Below are positions 51,703 to 59,389 of a DNA stretch of 64,000 nt, piece by piece (within the stretch, counting starts at the first letter, position 1; each line of letters opens with the position of its first letter). Under the pieces are notes generated by a model that was not told the DNA's origin, ran no database searches, and worked only from the letters and a program-made list of their open reading frames with translations. This stretch comes from a virus (Duplodnaviria; Heunggongvirae; Uroviricota; Caudoviricetes), in the IMG/VR virus record IMGVR_UViG_2875713109_000001; one strand, written 5' to 3'. A program made the translations under genes and the position numbers.

Positions 51703-52491
51703 TTACTGTGCCGCTTTGTTTAATTCATCAAGAACAGAATCAGGAACCAAAGCGGCAACTGCGCTGGCTGTGCTGACCTTATTTGCTGATGCTTCCGCAA
51801 GCGCGGTACCGATAGCATGGTTATAAGCAGTTATGGCTACGTTGGCGCTTTCATTCGCTCGTTCATACTGCTGTTGTAACGCAGTTGTGGGCGCTGTTGT
51901 CTGGTTGAAAACAACCCCAAACTGTTCAGTTGCTACTTTCAGAGATTCAATTTGCTCTTCTGTTAGTGCTGGTGGGGGAGTGGCAGTGCCGCCGCCTGAA
52001 CCAGAGCCTGACGAGCTTCCTGAGCCAGTGTTAAGGGTCTGGTTAATCTCCCCCATAGCAGCGACTAAACTTGATGTATTAAGCGCGTTAACAGCGTCCT
52101 CAAGCGATTTAGTAATATTCACATCACCAATGGCAATAGAGATCGGCAGTTCTGAAACTTCTCGCTCATTAGCACGGCAGTAAACATCCCAACCAATATC
52201 GAGTTGAAGCAGCATTGACAGATCTGCATAACCAGCCAACAGGTCCGCGTGCTTAGTTGCCAGTTCTCCAATGTTCGTTAAGCCAGTTGTGGTTGTTCTG
52301 ATCGTTGAAACATAGCTGGTAATAGTGTCGGGATAGACAATTGTATCCAGAATTAATCCGGTCAATTCTTCTGCAAGCAGTTTTGCTGTGTTAGCACTGT
52401 TTCGTGCCGATGTTATGGCACCAGGTGTTTTCATCCCACCGGCGGCGGCCAATTTTTTATATGCGGATAACTGGTAGTCTTTTTCCAGCAT
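51703..52491 (-). CDS. hypothetical protein with Ser/Gly linker
   Basis: ATG at 52491 with SD AGGAGAT; track frame opens at 52548. Confidence 0.45.
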   Translation of the reverse strand: MLEKDYQLSAYKKLAAAGGMKTPGAITSARNSANTAKLLAEELTGLILDTIVYPDTITSYVSTIRTTTTGLTNIGELATKHADLLAGYADLSMLLQLDIGWDVYCRANEREVSELPISIAIGDVNITKSLEDAVNALNTSSLVAAMGEINQTLNTGSGSSSGSGSGGGTATPPPALTEEQIESLKVATEQFGVVFNQTTAPTTALQQQYERANESANVAITAYNHAIGTALAEASANKVSTASAVAALVPDSVLDELNKAAQ

Positions 52492-52499
52492 GATATCTC

Positions 52500-52784
52500 C
52501 TAACTTACCTGAACCAGGCCGTCTCCGGACGCTACGGTAGATCCGCATGAAACAGGGTCACCAACGCATACGATCCCTTTACCATTGACGGTAAACCATG
52601 CCCTGGTTGATATAGCTTGCCCACCGTGCGTACTGTTTCCATCGGTATGCTGTGCATATTGCTTACCATCAACTAACACTTCGACTCCGTTGACTTTAAG
52701 TAGTGGTTCACTCTCTACAGGAGGCCTGGATGGGAATCCTCCGTGCCCCGAACAAATGCTGTCTTTTGTTGCAATACTTGCCAC
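52500..52784 (-). CDS. small Gly/Cys/His-containing protein, possibly PAAR-like
   Basis: GTG start with SD GGTGA; no internal Met; TVNGKGIVCVGDPVSCG segment. Confidence 0.3.
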   Translation of the reverse strand: MASIATKDSICSGHGGFPSRPPVESEPLLKVNGVEVLVDGKQYAQHTDGNSTHGGQAISTRAWFTVNGKGIVCVGDPVSCGSTVASGDGLVQVS

Positions 52785-52864
52785 GTCATCACCAATTATT
52801 TGCTCTGGTTTTCGTTATTTTAACTTAGGTTACTTGTGGTCTACATGGTGTTAACTATTAAATA

Positions 52865-52881
52865 ATTGCTCTAATAAATAT
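52865..52881 (+). promoter_or_regulatory. C1 operator-like site ATTGCTCTAATAAATAT
   Basis: 16/17 match; upstream of the rdgC-dmt operon. Confidence 0.5.
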
Positions 52882-52952
52882 TGTTTTTTATGTCGTGTTT
52901 TCGGTACCATTCAGCCATCGCCCTTCAATGGGTATTTGTTTGGAGTCGTCAG

Positions 52953-53237
52953 ATGCAGATGGAGCTAATAAGCCGCAAAGAGTTCGATAGCCGTGTAACC
53001 AGCGGTGAACTCGACAACTTGCAGGCTATCAAGGTGAAAGAAGGCTTTTGCCTCATTGGGAATCAGAGCGGAACAAATCGCGTTTTTATGCTTCGCCGTA
53101 CGGATTTGAAGCCATTTGTCTGGAAGAACGAAATTGGTCCCAGCTCATACGCTCAAACTAGGGGGTGCCTCAACCTGGCCTTTTTCTACAAAAACGAGCT
53201 TTCTGTGGTTGATATTCAAGGGTTACAACATGTTTAA
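52953..53237 (+). CDS. small hypothetical protein upstream of rdgC-like gene
   Basis: ATG 52953 with SD GGAG; track frame opens at 52881. Confidence 0.35.
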
Positions 53238-54135
53238 GCACTGGAAAAACATTACTATTTTTAAACTTTCTCGTGAGGCGGATCTGACCGACTTGGAAGA
53301 TAAAAAGAAAATGATCCTTTTCACGCCATGCGGTAGTCAGGATATGGCCAAGTTCGGTTTTGTATCTCCATTTGGTGATAATTCCGAAGTTATCGCTATG
53401 CATGGAAATGGTTTTATCCTTGTTGAAGCAAAGCGCGAAACAAAAATTCTTCCCCCGCCGGTTATCCAGCGAGCTATTCAAGAAAAAATTGAAAAACTCG
53501 AGCAAGAACAAGCGCGTAAACTGAAGAAAACAGAGAAGGACTCCCTGAAAGACGAAGTTCTGCATTCTCTTCTGCCACGGGCTTTTTCAAAGTTCTCTGT
53601 TATCCAGGCGATCTACGACGGTTCAACTAAACGTATCTATATCAATGCCAGCGCGCGGCAGGCAGAGGATATGCTCGCGCTTATGCGTAAATCTCTGGGT
53701 TCTCTTCCTGTTGTTCCCCTAAGTGTTGAAAATCCCATTGAATTAACGCTGACCGACTGGGTACGTGATGGTAGTGCTCCACAGGGATTTCAAATGGGGG
53801 ATGCGGCAGAACTTAAGGCAGTGCTTGAGGATGGCGGTATTGCCCGAGTGAAAAAGCAGGACTTGGGAAGTGATGAAATATCCACACACCTGGAAGCTGG
53901 CAAGCTCGTCACTAAGTTGGCACTCGACTGGCAGAACCGCATTAAATTTACACTGGACCATAACTTCAGCCTTACCAGCGTCAAATTTGCGGATGAATTG
54001 CTTGAGCAGAACGCTGATATTGATAGTGAAGATGTTGCGCAGCGACTGGACGCAGATTTCTTCCTGTTGACCAGTGAAATTTCGTGCCTGGTTGATGCTC
54101 TGGTAAATGCCCTTGGTGGAGAGGCTAAGCAGTGA
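53230..54135 (+). CDS. RdgC-like recombination-associated protein
   Basis: N-terminus [20 protein letters not shown]...[19 protein letters not shown] resembles E. coli RdgC; ATG overlaps upstream stop. Confidence 0.75.
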
Positions 54136-56396
54136 AAGAGCTGTGCTATGGATCTGTTTGCAGTGGAATTGAAGCCGCGAGTATTGCCTGGGAACCGTTG
54201 GGTATGCGTCCGGCGTGGTTTGCTGAAATCGAGCCTTTTCCATCTGCCGTTCTTGCGCACCGCTGGCCCCATGTCGCCAACCTTGGCGACATGACAAAAC
54301 TTGCCAAAAAAGTCCTGGCTGGGGAAATCGAATCCCCTGATGTGCTCGTCGGGGGAACACCTTGTCAGGCATTCAGTATCGCTGGATTACGTGGTGGGCT
54401 TGATGATGAGCGTGGCGCGCTAACTTTAAAGTATGTGGAGCTTGCAAATGCAATTGACGACAAACGGGCTGAGTCATTTCTCAAACCAGCCGTTATCGTC
54501 TGGGAAAATGTCCCAGGAGTCTTGTCATCGGCAGATAACGCCTTCGGATGTTTCCTTGCCGGATTGGCTGGAGAAGATGCGCCATTTGAACCAGGTGATC
54601 GACCTGAATCAGGAAAAAGTAACGCGTTCTGGCGGTGGGATGGCAAAACCGGTTGCCATGCTCCAAAGTGGCCGCAGTGTGGTTGTATTTATGGACCGCA
54701 GCGAAAGGTGGCCTGGAGAATCCTTGATGCCCAATACTTCGGAGTGGCACAACGACGCCGACGCGTGTTTGTTGTCGCAAGTGCTCGAACAGACCTCGAT
54801 CCCGCAACGGTACTTTTTGAGTTCGAAGGCGTGCGCCGGGATATTGCGCCGAGCCGAAAAAAGAAGGAAATCGCTTCCGCCATTATTGCAAATGGCGCTG
54901 CAATCAGTGGCGAAAGCCTAAATCCATGCCTACATGCTGACATGCCACCCGGTATGAAATCGACGAAAGCCGTAAACGCTTTCAGGATGGCAGCATTTGG
55001 GGAATATATTGACGATGAAACCGCATCGACAGTAAAGGCAAGAGATTTTAAAGATGCCACTGACCTTGCCGTTTTTAGCAGCACAGGAGCAGCTTTTTGG
55101 TCAGAAGGGCATGGTACATTGCGGGCACGTGAGCAAGAAAGCCATGAGCATCTTGTTACATTGGCTTTTCCTGAGCGTATGAGCGGTACACAACATGCTG
55201 CAACTAAGAATACTTCACCATCTCTAATGGCTAAAAATCCAACAGCTGTTTGCTATGAAGTAAGAAACGCAGAAGTAGCTGTCCGCCGTCTTACCCCTGT
55301 CGAATGTGAAAGGCTGCAAGGTTTTCCTGATGGGCATACGTTGATCCCGACGGAAAAGCGTAAAAAAGTTAGTTCAGATGAACTGGCATATCTTCGCAAT
55401 CACTATCCAGATTTAAGCGAAGAAGAGGCCGTGATGCTTGCAGCTGACGGACCGCGTTACAAAGCGATCGGCAATAGTATGGCAATACCAGTAATGCGCT
55501 GGATTGGCGATCGGATTACTAAGGCCGTATGTCGGCAGAAAGAAGGAAGTGAAACAAAAGAGCGAAAAGTTAAACCAGCGGCAGAATTCGAACGGTCCAT
55601 ATTCAAATGGGCTGGTGGAAAATTTGGTGTTCTGGAACAAATCTTTCGCTATTTGCCAGAAGGGAAGCGCCTGATTGAACCTTTCGTTGGTGGCGGAGCT
55701 GTCTTCATGAATGCCGGATACCAGGAAAATCTGCTAAATGATGTGAATGCTGACCTGATTAACTTTTACAAGACTCTGCAACGCGAGGCGCATTCACTTA
55801 TCACTCTGGCACATCGTTTTTTCCTGGACTACAACACCCAGGAGGGATACTTGGCAGTACGGAATGCGTTTAACAAACAAGTCTATGATGATTTACATCG
55901 CGCAGCGGCGTTTTTGTTCCTGAACCGACATTGTTTTAACGGATTGACGCGTTACAACCAGGCCGGTGAGTTCAATGTCGGTTATGGGAAGTATAAAACT
56001 CCGTATTTCCCATTACAGGAGATGGAAGCCTTCCTCGGTGCGGAAGGGCGGTCTGAGTTTGTATGCGGTGATTTTGCAGCGGTGATTGAAGCTGCCGGAG
56101 AAGGAGATGTCATCTTTTGCGATCCGCCGTATGAACCGCTCCCCAATACAGAGGGGTTCACGAACTATTCCGGTCATGACTTTAAGTTTGAAGAGCAAAA
56201 ACGCCTGGTGTCTCTGTTGACGGATGCTCATCGTCGAGGTGCAAAGGTTCTCATTACTAACAGTGGCGCGCCAAACATCAGAGAGCTTTATCATGACAGT
56301 GGCTTCAGAGTGGAACCTCTTTTTGCCAGACGTTCTGTGTCTTGTAAGGGGGACACTCGAGGTGTAGCTCATGACGTTTTGGGTATATTGCTCTAA
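54132..56396 (+). CDS. dmt: bifunctional DNA methyltransferase: N-terminal C5-cytosine (Dcm-like) + C-terminal N6-adenine (Dam-like)
   Basis: 754 aa; [11 protein letters not shown] and VIVWENVPG (C5 MTase); [13 protein letters not shown]...[12 protein letters not shown] and FCDPPYEP (Dam-like); GTG start with SD GGAGG. Confidence 0.9.
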
Positions 56397-56403
56397 TAAA
56401 TTA
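56387..56403 (+). promoter_or_regulatory. C1 operator-like site ATTGCTCTAATAAATTA overlapping the dmt stop codon
   Basis: 16/17 match; encodes the last codons of dmt. Confidence 0.5.
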
Positions 56404-56577
56404 ATTAGTGTAATATCGCCTCAATGAATCGTGATTTATAGAGCGATTTAGCTGTTAGCCGCGACAGGCGCGGCGGTAAGCATGGCTGGGCCTAGTCCTC
56501 CCAGACAAACCACCGAGTTGCCAGGTTGACCATGCGCCTAAGTGGCAACGCCGAAGTGCGTTACGAGCTTCCAGTTT

Positions 56578-56603
56578 GCCCATCTTCGGGTGGGCGTTTT
56601 TTT
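56578..56603 (+). terminator. intrinsic terminator GCCCA-tcttcggg-TGGGC-GTTTTTTT
   Basis: GC stem followed by T7 run. Confidence 0.6.
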
Positions 56604-57069
56604 CAGGGTTTTCGTCATGGTTAGCGACTTTGCGGCGGTTTAGAAACTGACCATTAAAGTAAATGCAAACGATGATCTGATGATGGTAGCGGCCTAAGAA
56701 ACCAGATGCCACGGGGTATGAGTCGTCCCCCGTCAAAAAAATCGACCGCAGAGTGTCCCCGTCTGTGTATTAGGGAACGGGGAGGCACAACAGGTAAGGG
56801 CGCTGGTGTGATTAACCAGATGAACGAGAAGGGGCCATCTGTTGGTCAGCGTCCTTTCCTGTTGCGTTTTCTTTTCAGCGTAACAGCGGTGCTTAACAGC
56901 ACTTTGGGTACAGTTCCACGAATTTACGGGTATATCCCGTCATGCTGAAGGCGCTAATCACGCTGGAAGCCAGGGTTGTGCATCCCCTGTTACCGAATTG
57001 CAGCCAGGGCGCGGTGCGCCGAAAAGCATACGGAGGTGGAAGCCCTCGCCGGAGACGTACCCGGCAAGT

Positions 57070-57145
57070 GATGGTGTAGCTCAGCGGTTAGAGCGGTTGA
57101 CTGTTAATCAACGGGTCGATGGTTCAAATCCATCCACCATCGCCA
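57070..57145 (+). tRNA. tRNA-Asn (anticodon GTT)
   Basis: Full cloverleaf read by hand: acceptor GATGGTG/CACCATC, anticodon loop CTGTTAA, T-arm GATGG-TTCAAAT-CCATC, encoded CCA. Confidence 0.9.
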
Positions 57146-57147
57146 AT

Positions 57148-57223
57148 GCCGGTTTAGCTCAGTTGGTAGAGCGCCTGCCTTGTAAGCAGGATGTCAGCGG
57201 TTCGAGTCCGTTAATCGGCACCA
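57148..57223 (+). tRNA. tRNA-Thr (anticodon TGT)
   Basis: Acceptor GCCGGTT/AATCGGC, D-arm GCTCAGTTGGTAGAGC, anticodon loop CTTGTAA, T-loop TTCGAGT, encoded CCA. Confidence 0.9.
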
Positions 57224-57227
57224 GCAC

Positions 57228-57318
57228 AACAGGTAAGGGTATTTTGCGACGCCGGAGATCGCCGAGCTTGGCAGAGGGTTCGAATCCCTACGAAGTACCC
57301 TTACCGTTGTGATGAAGT
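57228..57318 (+). ncRNA. tRNA-like hairpin element A
   Basis: 17-bp inverted repeat CACAACAGGTAAGGGTA / TACCCTTACCGTTGTG enclosing AGGGTTCGAATCCCT (canonical T-arm). Confidence 0.35.
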
Positions 57319-57444
57319 GCAGCTCTTTGAAGCAACCAGAAGATAAGCATCTGGCTTCACAACATAAACCGCAGGAACGACCAATAAACGGTAGTCCGTA
57401 TGGAGAACACCCCGTTGAGGAAGAGGCCTGGCCGGAACCGTAAC

Positions 57445-57557
57445 CGGCACTACAACGTTGAGAACACTGGCGTAACGGGGTCATATCCCAATCTACGAAT
57501 AAATGTTGCGTTGCAGCGTGACAACCAGTGTTCTCAACATTGTGGTGAATGCACAGG
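57445..57557 (+). ncRNA. tRNA-like hairpin element B
   Basis: 18-bp inverted repeat CAACGTTGAGAACACTGG / CCAGTGTTCTCAACATTG enclosing ACGGGGTCATATCCCAATCTAC. Confidence 0.35.
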
Positions 57558-57722
57558 CTGATGTGCCGCAACTACAGTAGTGCGCGCTTTGCGGGGCTTG
57601 CTACAACCCTGTGTCGGAGTTCAGCACCGACCATCACAGTTTGATTCTCTGGCATGAGCATAACGCTGAAATAAGTCCAGTCTGGTGCGGCCCGATCACC
57701 CGCCGTTAGCTCCACGAAACGG

Positions 57723-57815
57723 AGCACGTAACAGGTAAGAGCATTCTCCTGTAACGGGTTCATATCCCAATCTACAGGTCCACCAAGAATGCTCTTTCCG
57801 TTGCGGTGAATGCGG
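57723..57815 (+). ncRNA. tRNA-like hairpin element C
   Basis: Inverted repeat AAGAGCATTCT / AGAATGCTCTT enclosing ACGGGTTCATATCCCAATCTAC; 5' ACAGGTAAG and 3' CCGTTGCGGTGAATGC shared with A/B. Confidence 0.35.
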
Positions 57816-57955
57816 CTAAGCGCACGCGGGGAAATGGTTATATCAGTCCATTCATTTCTCCTTGTTTCCCCGTCCACGGTGGATAACCAGCCAAAGGACA
57901 CCGGGAGGCACCCGGCACCGCAGCTTTTTTATTCGTTAAATAATGGAGTGAGAGG

Positions 57956-58192
57956 ATGCAGAACAATCCGAACAAATGTCGAACGCTATGGGTGCGGTTA
58001 TATATTTATGCCGTCCTCTGTTTGATTGTGTCACTGGTTCTGTATGTTTGGCTTTTGCCAAATATGATCTCATCTAACAGCACAATACTTGTATTGTTGG
58101 GAGTCCTTCTCGCGCTCATTTACCCGGCTTTCGCAGTAGTCTTTTTTCGTGAAAAAACCAGGAAATTAATTAATGAAAAAAACGTTGATTAG
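57956..58192 (+). CDS. small two-helix membrane protein coupled to SPFH lipoprotein
   Basis: 78 aa; ATG with SD GGAGTGAGAGG; overlaps downstream start. Confidence 0.45.
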   Translation: MQNNPNKCRTLWVRLYIYAVLCLIVSLVLYVWLLPNMISSNSTILVLLGVLLALIYPAFAVVFFREKTRKLINEKNVD

Positions 58193-59000
58193 TGCAGCGA
58201 TTATTTTGGGTTCTTTATGTCTGACCGGATGCGATCGGGTAGAGCCAGGTAACGTAGGGATCAAAGTAAATAAGCTGGGGGATGATAAAGGTATCGGTGA
58301 AGTAGTTGGCGTTGGTCGCTACTGGACAGGCTTGAATACTGAAGTTTATATCTTCCCGACCTTTAAGCAAATGAAGACATACGATGAGCCGTTCAGCTTC
58401 CAGATGAGCGACGGAACAACCATTGGTTACCACATCGGCGTAGCCTACAAGGTTGATCCAGCAAAAGTCACAACGGTATTTCAGACCTATCGCAAAGGTG
58501 TAGATGATATTACTGATACCGATCTACGCCAGAAGGTTGCAGATGCTCTGAACCGGTTAGCCAGCAAAATGACCACCGACAAATTTATCGACGGTGGCAA
58601 ATCTGAATTGCTTGATGCAGCCCTTAAAGACATTCAGGAAGAAATGACGCCAATCGGCATTCAGGTGATGAGCCTCTCTTATGTAGGTAAGCCAGAATAC
58701 CCGCCAACAGTTATTGACAGTATTAACGCCAAAGTCACGGCAAACCAAAAAACCCTGCAACGCGAGCAAGAGGTCAAACAACGTGAAGCAGAGGCCAACA
58801 TGCTGCGCGCGGAAGCTGCCGGACAGGCTGATGCTATTCGCACAAAAGCCCAGGCCGAAGCTGATGCCATTCGTTTACGTGGTGAAGCTCTGCGCCAGAA
58901 CCCCGGTGTTATGGAGTTGGAAGCGATCAACAAATGGAACGGTACATTACCGCAGTATATGACCAGTAATACCGCTGTTCCGTTTGTTCCGGTGAAATAA
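58173..59000 (+). CDS. SPFH/band-7 (prohibitin-like) lipoprotein
   Basis: Lipobox LCLTGC; SPFH-like core; C-terminal coiled coil QREQEVKQREAEANMLRAEAAGQADAIR. Confidence 0.7.
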   Translation: MKKTLISAAIILGSLCLTGCDRVEPGNVGIKVNKLGDDKGIGEVVGVGRYWTGLNTEVYIFPTFKQMKTYDEPFSFQMSDGTTIGYHIGVAYKVDPAKVTTVFQTYRKGVDDITDTDLRQKVADALNRLASKMTTDKFIDGGKSELLDAALKDIQEEMTPIGIQVMSLSYVGKPEYPPTVIDSINAKVTANQKTLQREQEVKQREAEANMLRAEAAGQADAIRTKAQAEADAIRLRGEALRQNPGVMELEAINKWNGTLPQYMTSNTAVPFVPVK

Positions 59001-59027
59001 AAGCGTAAGCAAAATTGGCAGTAATCC

Positions 59028-59103
59028 GGCCCTTTAGCTCAGTGGTTAGAGCTGGCGACTCATAATCGCACGGTCACCGGTTCAAGTCCGGTAGGGGCCA
59101 CCA
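59028..59103 (+). tRNA. tRNA-Ile2-like (anticodon CAT, lysidine-type)
   Basis: Near-identical in layout to remembered E. coli ileX: GGCCCTTTAGCTCAGTGGTTAGAGC...CTCATAA...GGTTCAAGTCC...AGGGGCCACCA. Confidence 0.85.
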
Positions 59104-59389
59104 TATTTGGTTGTAACACGGCGTCTGGCACATGCGTCGTTAGCGGTCTGGTGACGTTAAAAGGGGGGAACCTTGCCCCTAGCTCAGGCAACGAACCAGG
59201 TAGCCGGAATGTGCAAGCCACCGTTTGTTGTTTCTCGGGTAAAGGGATTCACCATCCTGGCGATTCGGTGTGACAGCCGGGAAGAGTCCGGCGCATTAAT
59301 CCTGATTTTCTGGTGATGACTCATATCGTTAGGAGTGATTTGAGTATGCCGATTATATCTGACATTCAGCACGCCTGGGTGGAGTGCTA

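Follow-up and report, generated by a model that had tools for sequence, protein, structure and literature searches.

The stretch analysed here very probably comes from a P1-like (Punavirus) phage-plasmid of E. coli and corresponds to its uhr-hrdC-dmt operon (the 'P1 DNA methylation operon'), which is already known and is neither new nor unusual. Within the window, by which we mean the whole 64,000-nucleotide stretch of DNA that was analysed, all 3167 bases of hrdC and dmt could be compared with positions 65510-68676 of P1 (AF234172), giving a nucleotide identity of 98.5%, and P1 annotates the two matching genes as hrdC and dmt with identical boundaries. With uhr included, the window coordinates map one-to-one onto AF234172 65233-68676 and both gene overlaps (8 nt and 4 nt) are kept, while the encoded proteins differ from those of P1 by 16 amino acid substitutions in total, 2 in Uhr, 3 in HrdC and 11 in Dmt. 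Plasmid NZ_AP027786.1 is 100% identical to the window over the hrdC-dmt stretch. Of 5426 complete E. coli genomes, 575 (approximately 10%) contain this stretch, and 581 of its 593 genomic places are on plasmids. Annotation of the operon in P1 reportedly dates from the 2004 genome paper of Lobocka et al., and the P1 dam gene is said to go back to Coulby and Sternberg in 1988, with Dam function known since 1988-1990, so that the operon in itself adds little to what has long been established.

Three genes, not two, are chained by overlaps on the plus strand. The first, uhr (52953-53237, 94 aa), overlaps the start of hrdC by 8 nt (ATGTTTAA). It is followed by hrdC (53230-54135; ATG at 53230, TGA at 54133-54135), which encodes a 301 aa RdgC homologue, and by dmt (54132-56396; GTG at 54132, TAA at 56394-56396), which encodes a bifunctional DNA methyltransferase of 754 aa. 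As the initial annotation had pointed out, the GTG start of dmt (54132-54134) overlaps the TGA stop of hrdC (54133-54135), the two sharing 4 nt as GTGA. This GTG is the only sensible start of dmt, because an in-frame TAA occurs just 6 nt upstream and because motif I would be lost with either of the in-frame starts that follow, TTG at codon 23 and ATG at codon 25, and the boundaries of dmt and hrdC agree across the P1, P7, RCS47 and RefSeq PGAP annotations. A Shine-Dalgarno-like GGAGAGG run is located 8-14 nt upstream of the GTG, within hrdC, so that the two sequence features of a coupled gene pair are present, namely a start/stop overlap and a ribosome-binding site that lies within the preceding gene. 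The overlap is thus compatible with a translational coupling of dmt to hrdC, but dense packing of the operon, and not a conserved functional pair, is the probable reason for it. As for Uhr, it matches PHROG 2213 (E=1.8e-62), which is labelled NTP pyrophosphohydrolase, and has no match in Pfam, NCBIfam, PADLOC or PDB sequences.

The assignment of the gene at 53230-54135 to the RdgC family, already made in the initial annotation, is well founded. HrdC matches the Pfam RdgC model PF04381 over its full length (protein residues 5-298, model positions 3-298 of 298; E=1.3e-97, 327 bits for a cut-off of 25), scores 376 bits against NCBIfam NF001462, above the curated cut-off of 330, and is 62% identical to E. 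coli RdgC (PDB 2OWL) over 296 aa (E=1.4e-112). Its score against the E. coli-type equivalog NF001460 is 417 bits, below the cut-off of 501. The host RdgC is a ring-shaped dimeric protein with affinity for double-stranded DNA and an inhibitory effect on RecA. As a phage copy of RdgC, HrdC would probably modulate recombination or replication intermediates in lytic replication. In a normal host, uhr, hrdC and dmt proved non-essential in a CRISPRi screen (PMC10695390). RdgC homologues were found in 444 phage records. A conserved rdgC-methyltransferase pair was also considered and found no support in the three non-P1 neighbourhoods inspected, a small sample, since in none of the three (Escherichia phage AVIO78A, Vibrio phage X29 and Pseudomonas phage F116) does a methyltransferase directly adjoin rdgC; in F116, two methyltransferases are found about 1.4 kb downstream of it.

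The operon is flanked on both sides by binding sites for the C1 repressor. Upstream, the operator Odmt (former Op68; 52865-52881, plus strand, ATTGCTCTAATAAATAT) matches the consensus at 16 of 17 positions, is identical in sequence to that of P1 and is found at the position annotated in AF234172. The sigma-70 promoter Pdmt (52881-52910, plus strand; -35 TTGTTT at 52881-52886, -10 TACCAT at 52905-52910) is transferred from the P1 annotation (locus L001 3652-3681), to which the window is identical over this stretch; a generic sigma-70 scan did not detect it, and its placement therefore follows P1 only. At the other end, the divalent operator Oban (former Op72a/b; 56387-56414) overlaps the stop codon of dmt and starts the next C1-controlled unit (tRNAs, ban). 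It is composed of a plus-strand match at 56387-56403 with 1 mismatch and a minus-strand match at 56398-56414 with 3 mismatches, and at this place the P1 annotation shows Obanab with the promoters P1ban/P2ban. Both sites fall where Op68 and Op72 are annotated in P1 and P7, and a search with the C1 consensus allowing up to 3 mismatches gives 7 matches in the window, where 0.33 are expected by chance. Neither uhr, nor Op68/Odmt with Pdmt, nor the Oban operators over the dmt stop had been mentioned in the initial annotation. An Rfam scan of 52000-60000 returned three tRNAs only, the 'dicF-like region' that the P1 annotation places 3' of dmt being below the DicF threshold.

Taken over from the P1 annotation on the strength of sequence identity, as is the coupling of the genes, this control region suggests that Pdmt would transcribe uhr, hrdC and dmt and that C1, bound to the overlapping Op68/Odmt, would repress it. 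Because the operon is directly behind this operator, it would be silent in the plasmid prophage and turned on once C1 is inactivated, that is, during lytic growth. Induction of hrdC and dmt transcripts has been observed during P1vir infection (bioRxiv 10.64898/2025.12.28.696737). Under such repression, sequencing the methylome of lysogens would probably reveal nothing.

Dmt combines two methyltransferases in one protein. The fusion of an N-terminal C5-cytosine domain with a C-terminal Dam-type domain, which the initial annotation had read from motifs, is confirmed by matches to PF00145 and PF02086, and the motifs quoted there were located at aa 75-85 and 125-129 (the C5 motifs), 492-498 (KWAGGKF) and 664-667 (DPPY). 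The Dam-type N6-adenine methyltransferase domain (55590-56396, aa 487-754, plus strand) matches the D12 N6-adenine methylase model PF02086 over residues 493-725 (E=1.7e-56, 192 bits for a cut-off of 22) as well as TIGR00571 (249 bits, cut-off 114.85), and bears FVGGGAV at aa 518-524; with its AdoMet motif FxGxG and catalytic DPPY it belongs to the D12 class of the Dam family. It is 40% identical to E. coli Dam (PDB 2G1P) over 262 aa (E=2.6e-57), but scores 243 bits against the host-type Dam equivalog NF008152, for which the cut-off is 441, and on these scores it is classified as a phage Dam-family member and not as an orthologue of the host Dam. Two of its residues differ from P1 (T526M and Q565L).

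PMC12707154 documents the GATC specificity of P1 Dam/Dmt. In that review and in PMC11437467, both referring to Sternberg and Coulby (1990), P1 is described as requiring GATC methylation at pac and dmt as essential only in Dam- hosts, because the phage Dam activity methylates pac for packaging. The Dam domain of the window would accordingly act on adenine in GATC; its established function in P1 is to methylate the GATC-containing hexamers of pac and so let the pacase cut, which frees packaging from the limited Dam capacity of the host during rapid replication. The window has no cluster of pac-type TGATC(A/G) hexamers, with no more than 3 of them in 170 bp, and pac must therefore be outside it.

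The initial annotation had assigned the enzyme a different task, namely to license the GATC-rich origin by self-methylation while also protecting against host restriction, which would here mean methylating oriR for plasmid replication in the lysogen. There is indeed such an origin 2.3 kb upstream of the operon: five GATC sites at 50553-50607, annotated in P1 as Dam methylation sites 1-5 of oriR, form the densest GATC cluster of the window (5 in 120 bp, and never more than 3 elsewhere) and adjoin five CAGCACACAT RepA iterons and TGTGGATAA DnaA boxes. P1 oriR reportedly needs methylated GATC, as Abeles and Austin are said to have found in 1987, and Dmt does possess a Dam domain. However, the same work reportedly has the host Dam supplying this methylation in the lysogen, and the licensing idea is undercut because the operon, behind an operator matching the C1 consensus at 16 of 17 positions, is expected to be off precisely when oriR is in use. 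Methylation of GATC, moreover, shields DNA only from MboI/DpnII-type enzymes. Lytic replication, according to the abstract of PMC9948254, relies on oriL/RepL and not on oriR, and reviews (PMC12707154, PMC11437467) explain the importance of dmt by pac cleavage and not by origin licensing. We therefore regard origin licensing by Dmt as improbable, and favour methylation of pac during lytic growth as the role of the Dam domain.

The C5-cytosine methyltransferase domain (54132-55580, about aa 1-483, plus strand) has its catalytic cysteine at position 78. It matches PF00145 (E=3.7e-36, 126 bits for a cut-off of 22) and TIGR00675 (117 bits, cut-off 100.65), and motifs I, IV, VI, VIII and X are all present: a motif I variant at aa 8-17, the motif IV stretch with PCQ at aa 75-85 (nt 54354-54386), ENVPG at aa 125-129, QRRRRVF at aa 207-213 and GNSMAIPV at aa 447-454. 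The PCQ, ENV, QxRxR and GN signatures together with the model scores make it a member of the C5-methyltransferases, even though its motif I, SGIEAA, deviates from the canonical FxGxG. The description of this domain as Dcm-like holds at the level of the superfamily, through TIGR00675, but not at that of the Dcm (CCWGG) subfamily: the score against NF007772 is 22.7 bits for a cut-off of 710, by which measure the domain is not a Dcm orthologue, and a CCWGG specificity cannot be assumed.

The target-recognition region of this domain (54852-55283, aa 241-384, plus strand) is variable, and in the window it holds a P1-type cassette of 144 aa. It is located between invariant flanks, and in its place relatives carry the P7-type cassette of 62 aa or others of 100 aa or 236-252 aa, swapped in frame between these conserved flanks; the C5 core itself is invariant across 9 variant Dmt proteins. 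Tandem recognition domains, as in an SPR-like multispecific enzyme, were looked for and rejected, the halves of the P1-type cassette being dissimilar (z=-0.79) and similarity between the P1 and P7 cassettes not being detectable (z=0.39). A structure prediction of full-length Dmt, for which the input was a 9-sequence alignment of near-identical relatives, was unusable (mean pLDDT 31, pTM 0.29).

The C5 domain is probably functional, judging from its conservation. Its most likely activity is the formation of 5-methylcytosine at a short target that the exchangeable recognition cassette would determine, a modification that would shield the DNA of progeny phage against Type II restriction in the host infected next; protection against host restriction, as the initial annotation had proposed for Dmt, is thus plausible for this domain. 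Alternatively, Dmt could be a Dam enzyme only, its C5 domain being a decaying or purely structural remnant without methyltransferase activity. The P1 annotation says no more than 'perhaps at C5 cytosine', and our literature searches found no reports of 5mC produced by P1 Dmt or of a Dmt intein. To this can be added the non-canonical motif I, the tryptophan at residue 74 beside the catalytic PCQ in both sequenced laboratory P1 genomes, without known phenotype, and the dispensability of dmt under CRISPRi. The ratio of non-synonymous to synonymous changes between the window and P1 is also higher in the C5 half (9:12) than in the Dam half (2:13), a difference that is not significant (Fisher p=0.077). 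Against a remnant stand the presence of Cys78, ENV, QxRxR and GNS, a frame still open in hundreds of natural copies, G74 retained in 121 of the 122 relatives having the motif, and a core (aa 4-260) that is 55-70% identical to many widespread stand-alone C5 methyltransferases of phages and bacteria. In-frame exchange of cassettes, and inteins with intact splice junctions at the catalytic Cys, are what is expected of a gene under selection for function. We thus consider the loss of C5 activity unlikely.

It could also be asked whether Dmt serves as the modifying component of a plasmid-borne defence system, of the restriction-modification kind or another, as PADLOC models for a Type II methyltransferase and for the DruM/DrmMII cytosine methylase match parts of the protein. 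This we find extremely unlikely. Among the neighbours of dmt, with upfC, uhr and hrdC on its upstream side and tRNA genes on the other, no cognate endonuclease or other defence gene was found; neither Uhr nor HrdC matches a PADLOC model, the best match of Dmt is to 'orphan methyltransferase', and lytic-phase control by C1 runs opposite to the needs of a resident defence system.

A further observation concerns residue 74, next to the catalytic Cys, which is glycine (GGG) in the window and tryptophan (TGG) in both laboratory P1 genomes; every copy other than laboratory P1 is described as G74. Separately, some relatives of Dmt carry an intein at the catalytic Cys.

Building on a functional C5 domain, we tentatively raise a wider possibility, which we hold to be rather unlikely as a whole. 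Natural Dmt alleles such as that of the window (G74, intein-free, with a P1-type cassette) may be active 5mC methyltransferases, and swappable cassettes, of at least four types among P1-like plasmids, may give their lineages differing anti-restriction specificities, whereas the G74W change of laboratory P1 may attenuate activity, perhaps having been selected on Mcr+ E. coli K-12. If true, such an attenuation would account for the C5 function having so far escaped observation. In E. coli, P1-like phage-plasmids are frequent vehicles of resistance genes, and knowing which restriction barriers are overcome by each Dmt cassette would aid the prediction of their host range.

The closest known system is the P1 operon itself (AF234172 / NC_005856), whose gene lengths of 285, 906 and 2265 bp are identical in the window and with which the Op68 operator, the Pdmt promoter sequence and the 3' Op72 operators are all shared; the two differ 3' of the tRNA-Asn/Thr pair, where the window has an SPFH/Band_7 gene and P1 has plp-upl-tciABC. 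P7 Dam (AF503408) and RCS47 Dmt (FO818745) have the same operon, operators and overlaps, and a nearly identical C5 core and Dam domain, but P7 Dam, with 672 aa in total, has a 62 aa cassette unrelated to the 144 aa P1-type one, while RCS47 Dmt (1095 aa) combines the P1-type cassette with a 341 aa LAGLIDADG intein before Cys78.

More distant likenesses are found for the individual proteins. HrdC resembles E. coli RdgC (2OWL) over its full length, at equal size and 62% identity, but is phage-borne and, according to its predicted operator, under C1 control. The D12-class signature KWAGGK, FxGxG and DPPY is common to Dmt, E. coli Dam (2G1P) and T4 Dam, yet only in Dmt is the Dam domain fused behind a C5 methyltransferase; Dmt further differs in being phage-encoded with an expression that, from its operator, would be restricted to the lytic phase. 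Finally, the multispecific C5 methyltransferases of the Bacillus phages SPR, phi3T and rho11 (PMC12707154) are, like Dmt, phage-encoded orphans, silent in the lysogen as Dmt is predicted to be, and they too combine a conserved catalytic core with modular, exchangeable recognition regions. In Dmt, no support was found for several recognition domains in one protein; the P1 lineage instead swaps a single cassette between genomes and adds a Dam domain.

Three genes lie head-to-tail on the + strand within 52865-56414, namely uhr (52953-53237, 94 aa), hrdC (53230-54135, 301 aa) and dmt (54132-56396, 754 aa), and the PGAP reading frames are the same three. The 3' end of uhr runs 8 nt into hrdC (ATGTTTAA), and that of hrdC 4 nt into dmt (GTGA). 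For dmt only the GTG at 54132 can serve as the start: 6 nt before it stands an in-frame TAA, and the later in-frame starts, codons 23 and 25, would each delete methyltransferase motif I; a GGAGAGG run is found 8-14 nt upstream of the GTG. Uhr has no match in Pfam, NCBIfam, PADLOC or PDB sequences. RefSeq and PHROG label uhr (52953-53237) 'nucleoside triphosphate pyrophosphohydrolase', a label whose basis we did not find.

The initial annotation, an RdgC-like gene overlapping a two-domain methyltransferase, is an accurate reading of the sequence and was confirmed in full with respect to genes, domains, quoted motifs and Dam identity. The N-terminal part of Dmt matches the C5-cytosine methylase family (PF00145, E=3.7e-36) and residues 493-725 the D12 N6-adenine methylase family (PF02086, E=1.7e-56), and in NCBIfam the protein clears the thresholds of both the general 'dcm' superfamily model and the 'dam' subfamily model. 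All quoted motifs are in place (an 11-residue motif at aa 75-85, ENVPG at aa 125, KWAGGKF at aa 492 and DPPY at aa 664), and the other catalytic motifs are likewise intact, including FVGGGAV of the Dam domain, which shares 40% identity with E. coli Dam. An AlphaFold model of full-length Dmt was too poor to use (pLDDT 31). NCBI names for this methyltransferase include the erroneous 'multidrug DMT transporter permease' (P0040 and P0051), an error that seems to have spread from the gene symbol dmt.

HrdC is an end-to-end match to Pfam RdgC (E=1.3e-97) and shares 62% identity with E. coli RdgC (PDB 2OWL). Host RdgC is a double-stranded-DNA-binding ring that restrains RecA, and by analogy HrdC is likely to dampen RecA activity on phage DNA as it replicates. 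Phages commonly carry RdgC homologues (444 of 50,697 phage records); in three unrelated phages examined the gene lies inside replication and recombination modules with no methyltransferase immediately adjoining it, so that the hrdC/dmt overlap seems particular to the P1 lineage and not the mark of a functionally conserved pair.

The operon is bracketed by operators for the C1 repressor. One, with a single mismatch to the consensus, lies directly upstream of uhr (52865-52881; Odmt or Op68 in P1, with promoter Pdmt), while two consensus matches (56387-56403, + strand; 56398-56414, - strand; Obanab or Op72) span the dmt stop codon; the window holds seven matches to the consensus against 0.33 expected by chance. 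The P7 annotation names these sites Op(dam), 'predicted to control expression of upf64.0, hrdC and dam'. A generic promoter scan did not detect Pdmt. Since the operators stand at the P1-annotated positions and the operator-promoter sequence is the same as in P1, the operon should be off in the prophage and switched on once C1 is inactivated. In the P1vir transcriptome, hrdC and dmt are among the infection-induced genes (bioRxiv 10.64898/2025.12.28.696737).

About 180 nt downstream of dmt, inside the P1-annotated 'dicF-like region', lies a strong hairpin that, with the T-run behind it, resembles a terminator (56574-56596); the Rfam scan returned tRNAs only, with DicF below threshold at this hairpin. 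Further on, between tRNA-Thr and an anticodon-CAT tRNA (57956-59000), a 78-aa membrane-like ORF overlaps a 275-aa SPFH/Band_7 protein (Pfam E=9.7e-31) with a lipoprotein-like N-terminus, whereas P1 carries plp, upl and tciA-C at this place, indicating an accessory-gene swap.

The functional account first proposed, in which self-methylation licenses a GATC-rich origin and protects against host restriction, is half right, and origin licensing is its weakest part. The origin in question is the plasmid origin oriR, with five GATC at 50553-50607 (Dam sites 1-5 in the P1 annotation) adjoining five RepA iterons and DnaA boxes. Because oriR is active in the lysogen, where the operon is expected to be repressed, its methylation should fall to the host's Dam and not to Dmt, and lytic replication, according to PMC9948254, runs on RepL/oriL. 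For the same reason, the methylome of uninduced lysogens, suggested as a check, would be the wrong test. Two reviews (PMC12707154, PMC11437467), citing Sternberg and Coulby 1990, state that P1 packaging requires GATC methylation at pac and that the phage methyltransferase is essential in Dam- hosts only. In a genome-wide CRISPRi screen, uhr, hrdC and dmt were non-essential in a normal host (PMC10695390). The pac site is not present within the window.

The C5 domain is no Dcm orthologue, scoring 22.7 bits against the 710 cut-off of the Dcm model. Over aa 4-260, its core shares 55-70% identity with C5 methyltransferases of various lengths that make up a very large family in phages and bacteria; proteins in which this core is fused to a Dam domain fall into at least eight distinct clusters at 50% identity. 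In a 702-aa protein from the representatives search (P0143) the same core is joined to an MT-A70 adenine methyltransferase, with no Dam domain, so C5-plus-adenine methyltransferase fusions arose with different partners. In the phage collection, full-length matches come from P1-like records only, about 20 of them. No nuclease gene adjoins dmt, the best PADLOC match is 'orphan methyltransferase', and our literature search turned up no account of P1 Dmt producing 5mC. Since the catalytic motifs are all preserved and hundreds of natural copies have retained the reading frame, an active C5 enzyme with an anti-restriction role appears more likely than a dead domain.

Dmt relatives vary at three places. 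The C5 target-recognition region (aa 241-384, window 54852-55283), between motifs VIII and IX, is a cassette exchanged in frame among P1-like plasmids with invariant flanks (compared with P0097, P0091 and P0052). The P1-type form of 144 aa (window, P1, RCS47) has no detectable similarity to the 62-aa P7-type, and further forms measure 100 aa and 236-252 aa, which suggests that cytosine targets differ between lineages. Exactly before the catalytic Cys78 lies an intein of 341 aa with LAGLIDADG and Hint domains (GGTP/CFTAGH...VVHN/CQAFS), so that Cys78 would also serve as the +1 splice nucleophile. This intein is carried by the dmt of RCS47 (L003, 1403-4690), that of the OP279344 'P1' (L005, 1103-4144) and many plasmids and P1-like elements, including the genes for P0001, P0116, P0130 and P0156; it co-occurs with P1-type and P7-type cassettes alike, and is found in relatives only 52-67% identical. 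Hint/LAGLIDADG domains occupy the Cys78 site in more distant relatives as well. The window copy is intein-free, and we found no paper describing a Dmt intein. Finally, codon 74 (54351-54353), four residues before Cys78 of motif IV, is TGG (Trp) in both sequenced laboratory P1 c1.100 genomes (L001, L004); the residue is Gly in the window and in all 121 other relatives having the motif. In the reference P1, the allele may have arisen as a laboratory variant whose C5 domain is impaired.

Plasmid p2017-03-3CC_3, from an E. coli isolate, matches the region 52860-56420 at 100% identity. Among 5426 complete E. coli genomes, 575 have the operon; 581 of its 593 places are on plasmids, and the surrounding 20 kb has matches in more than 1300 Enterobacteriaceae plasmid records. 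Over its full length of 3167 bases the feature is 98.5% identical to phage P1 (AF234172, 65510-68676; megablast), with gene lengths and overlaps the same as in the P1 annotation and residue differences of 2 in Uhr, 3 in HrdC and 11 in Dmt. It is the operon of phage P1 itself, textbook and already known, which one paper terms the 'P1 DNA methylation operon' (PMC6906374), on a very common E. coli phage-plasmid.
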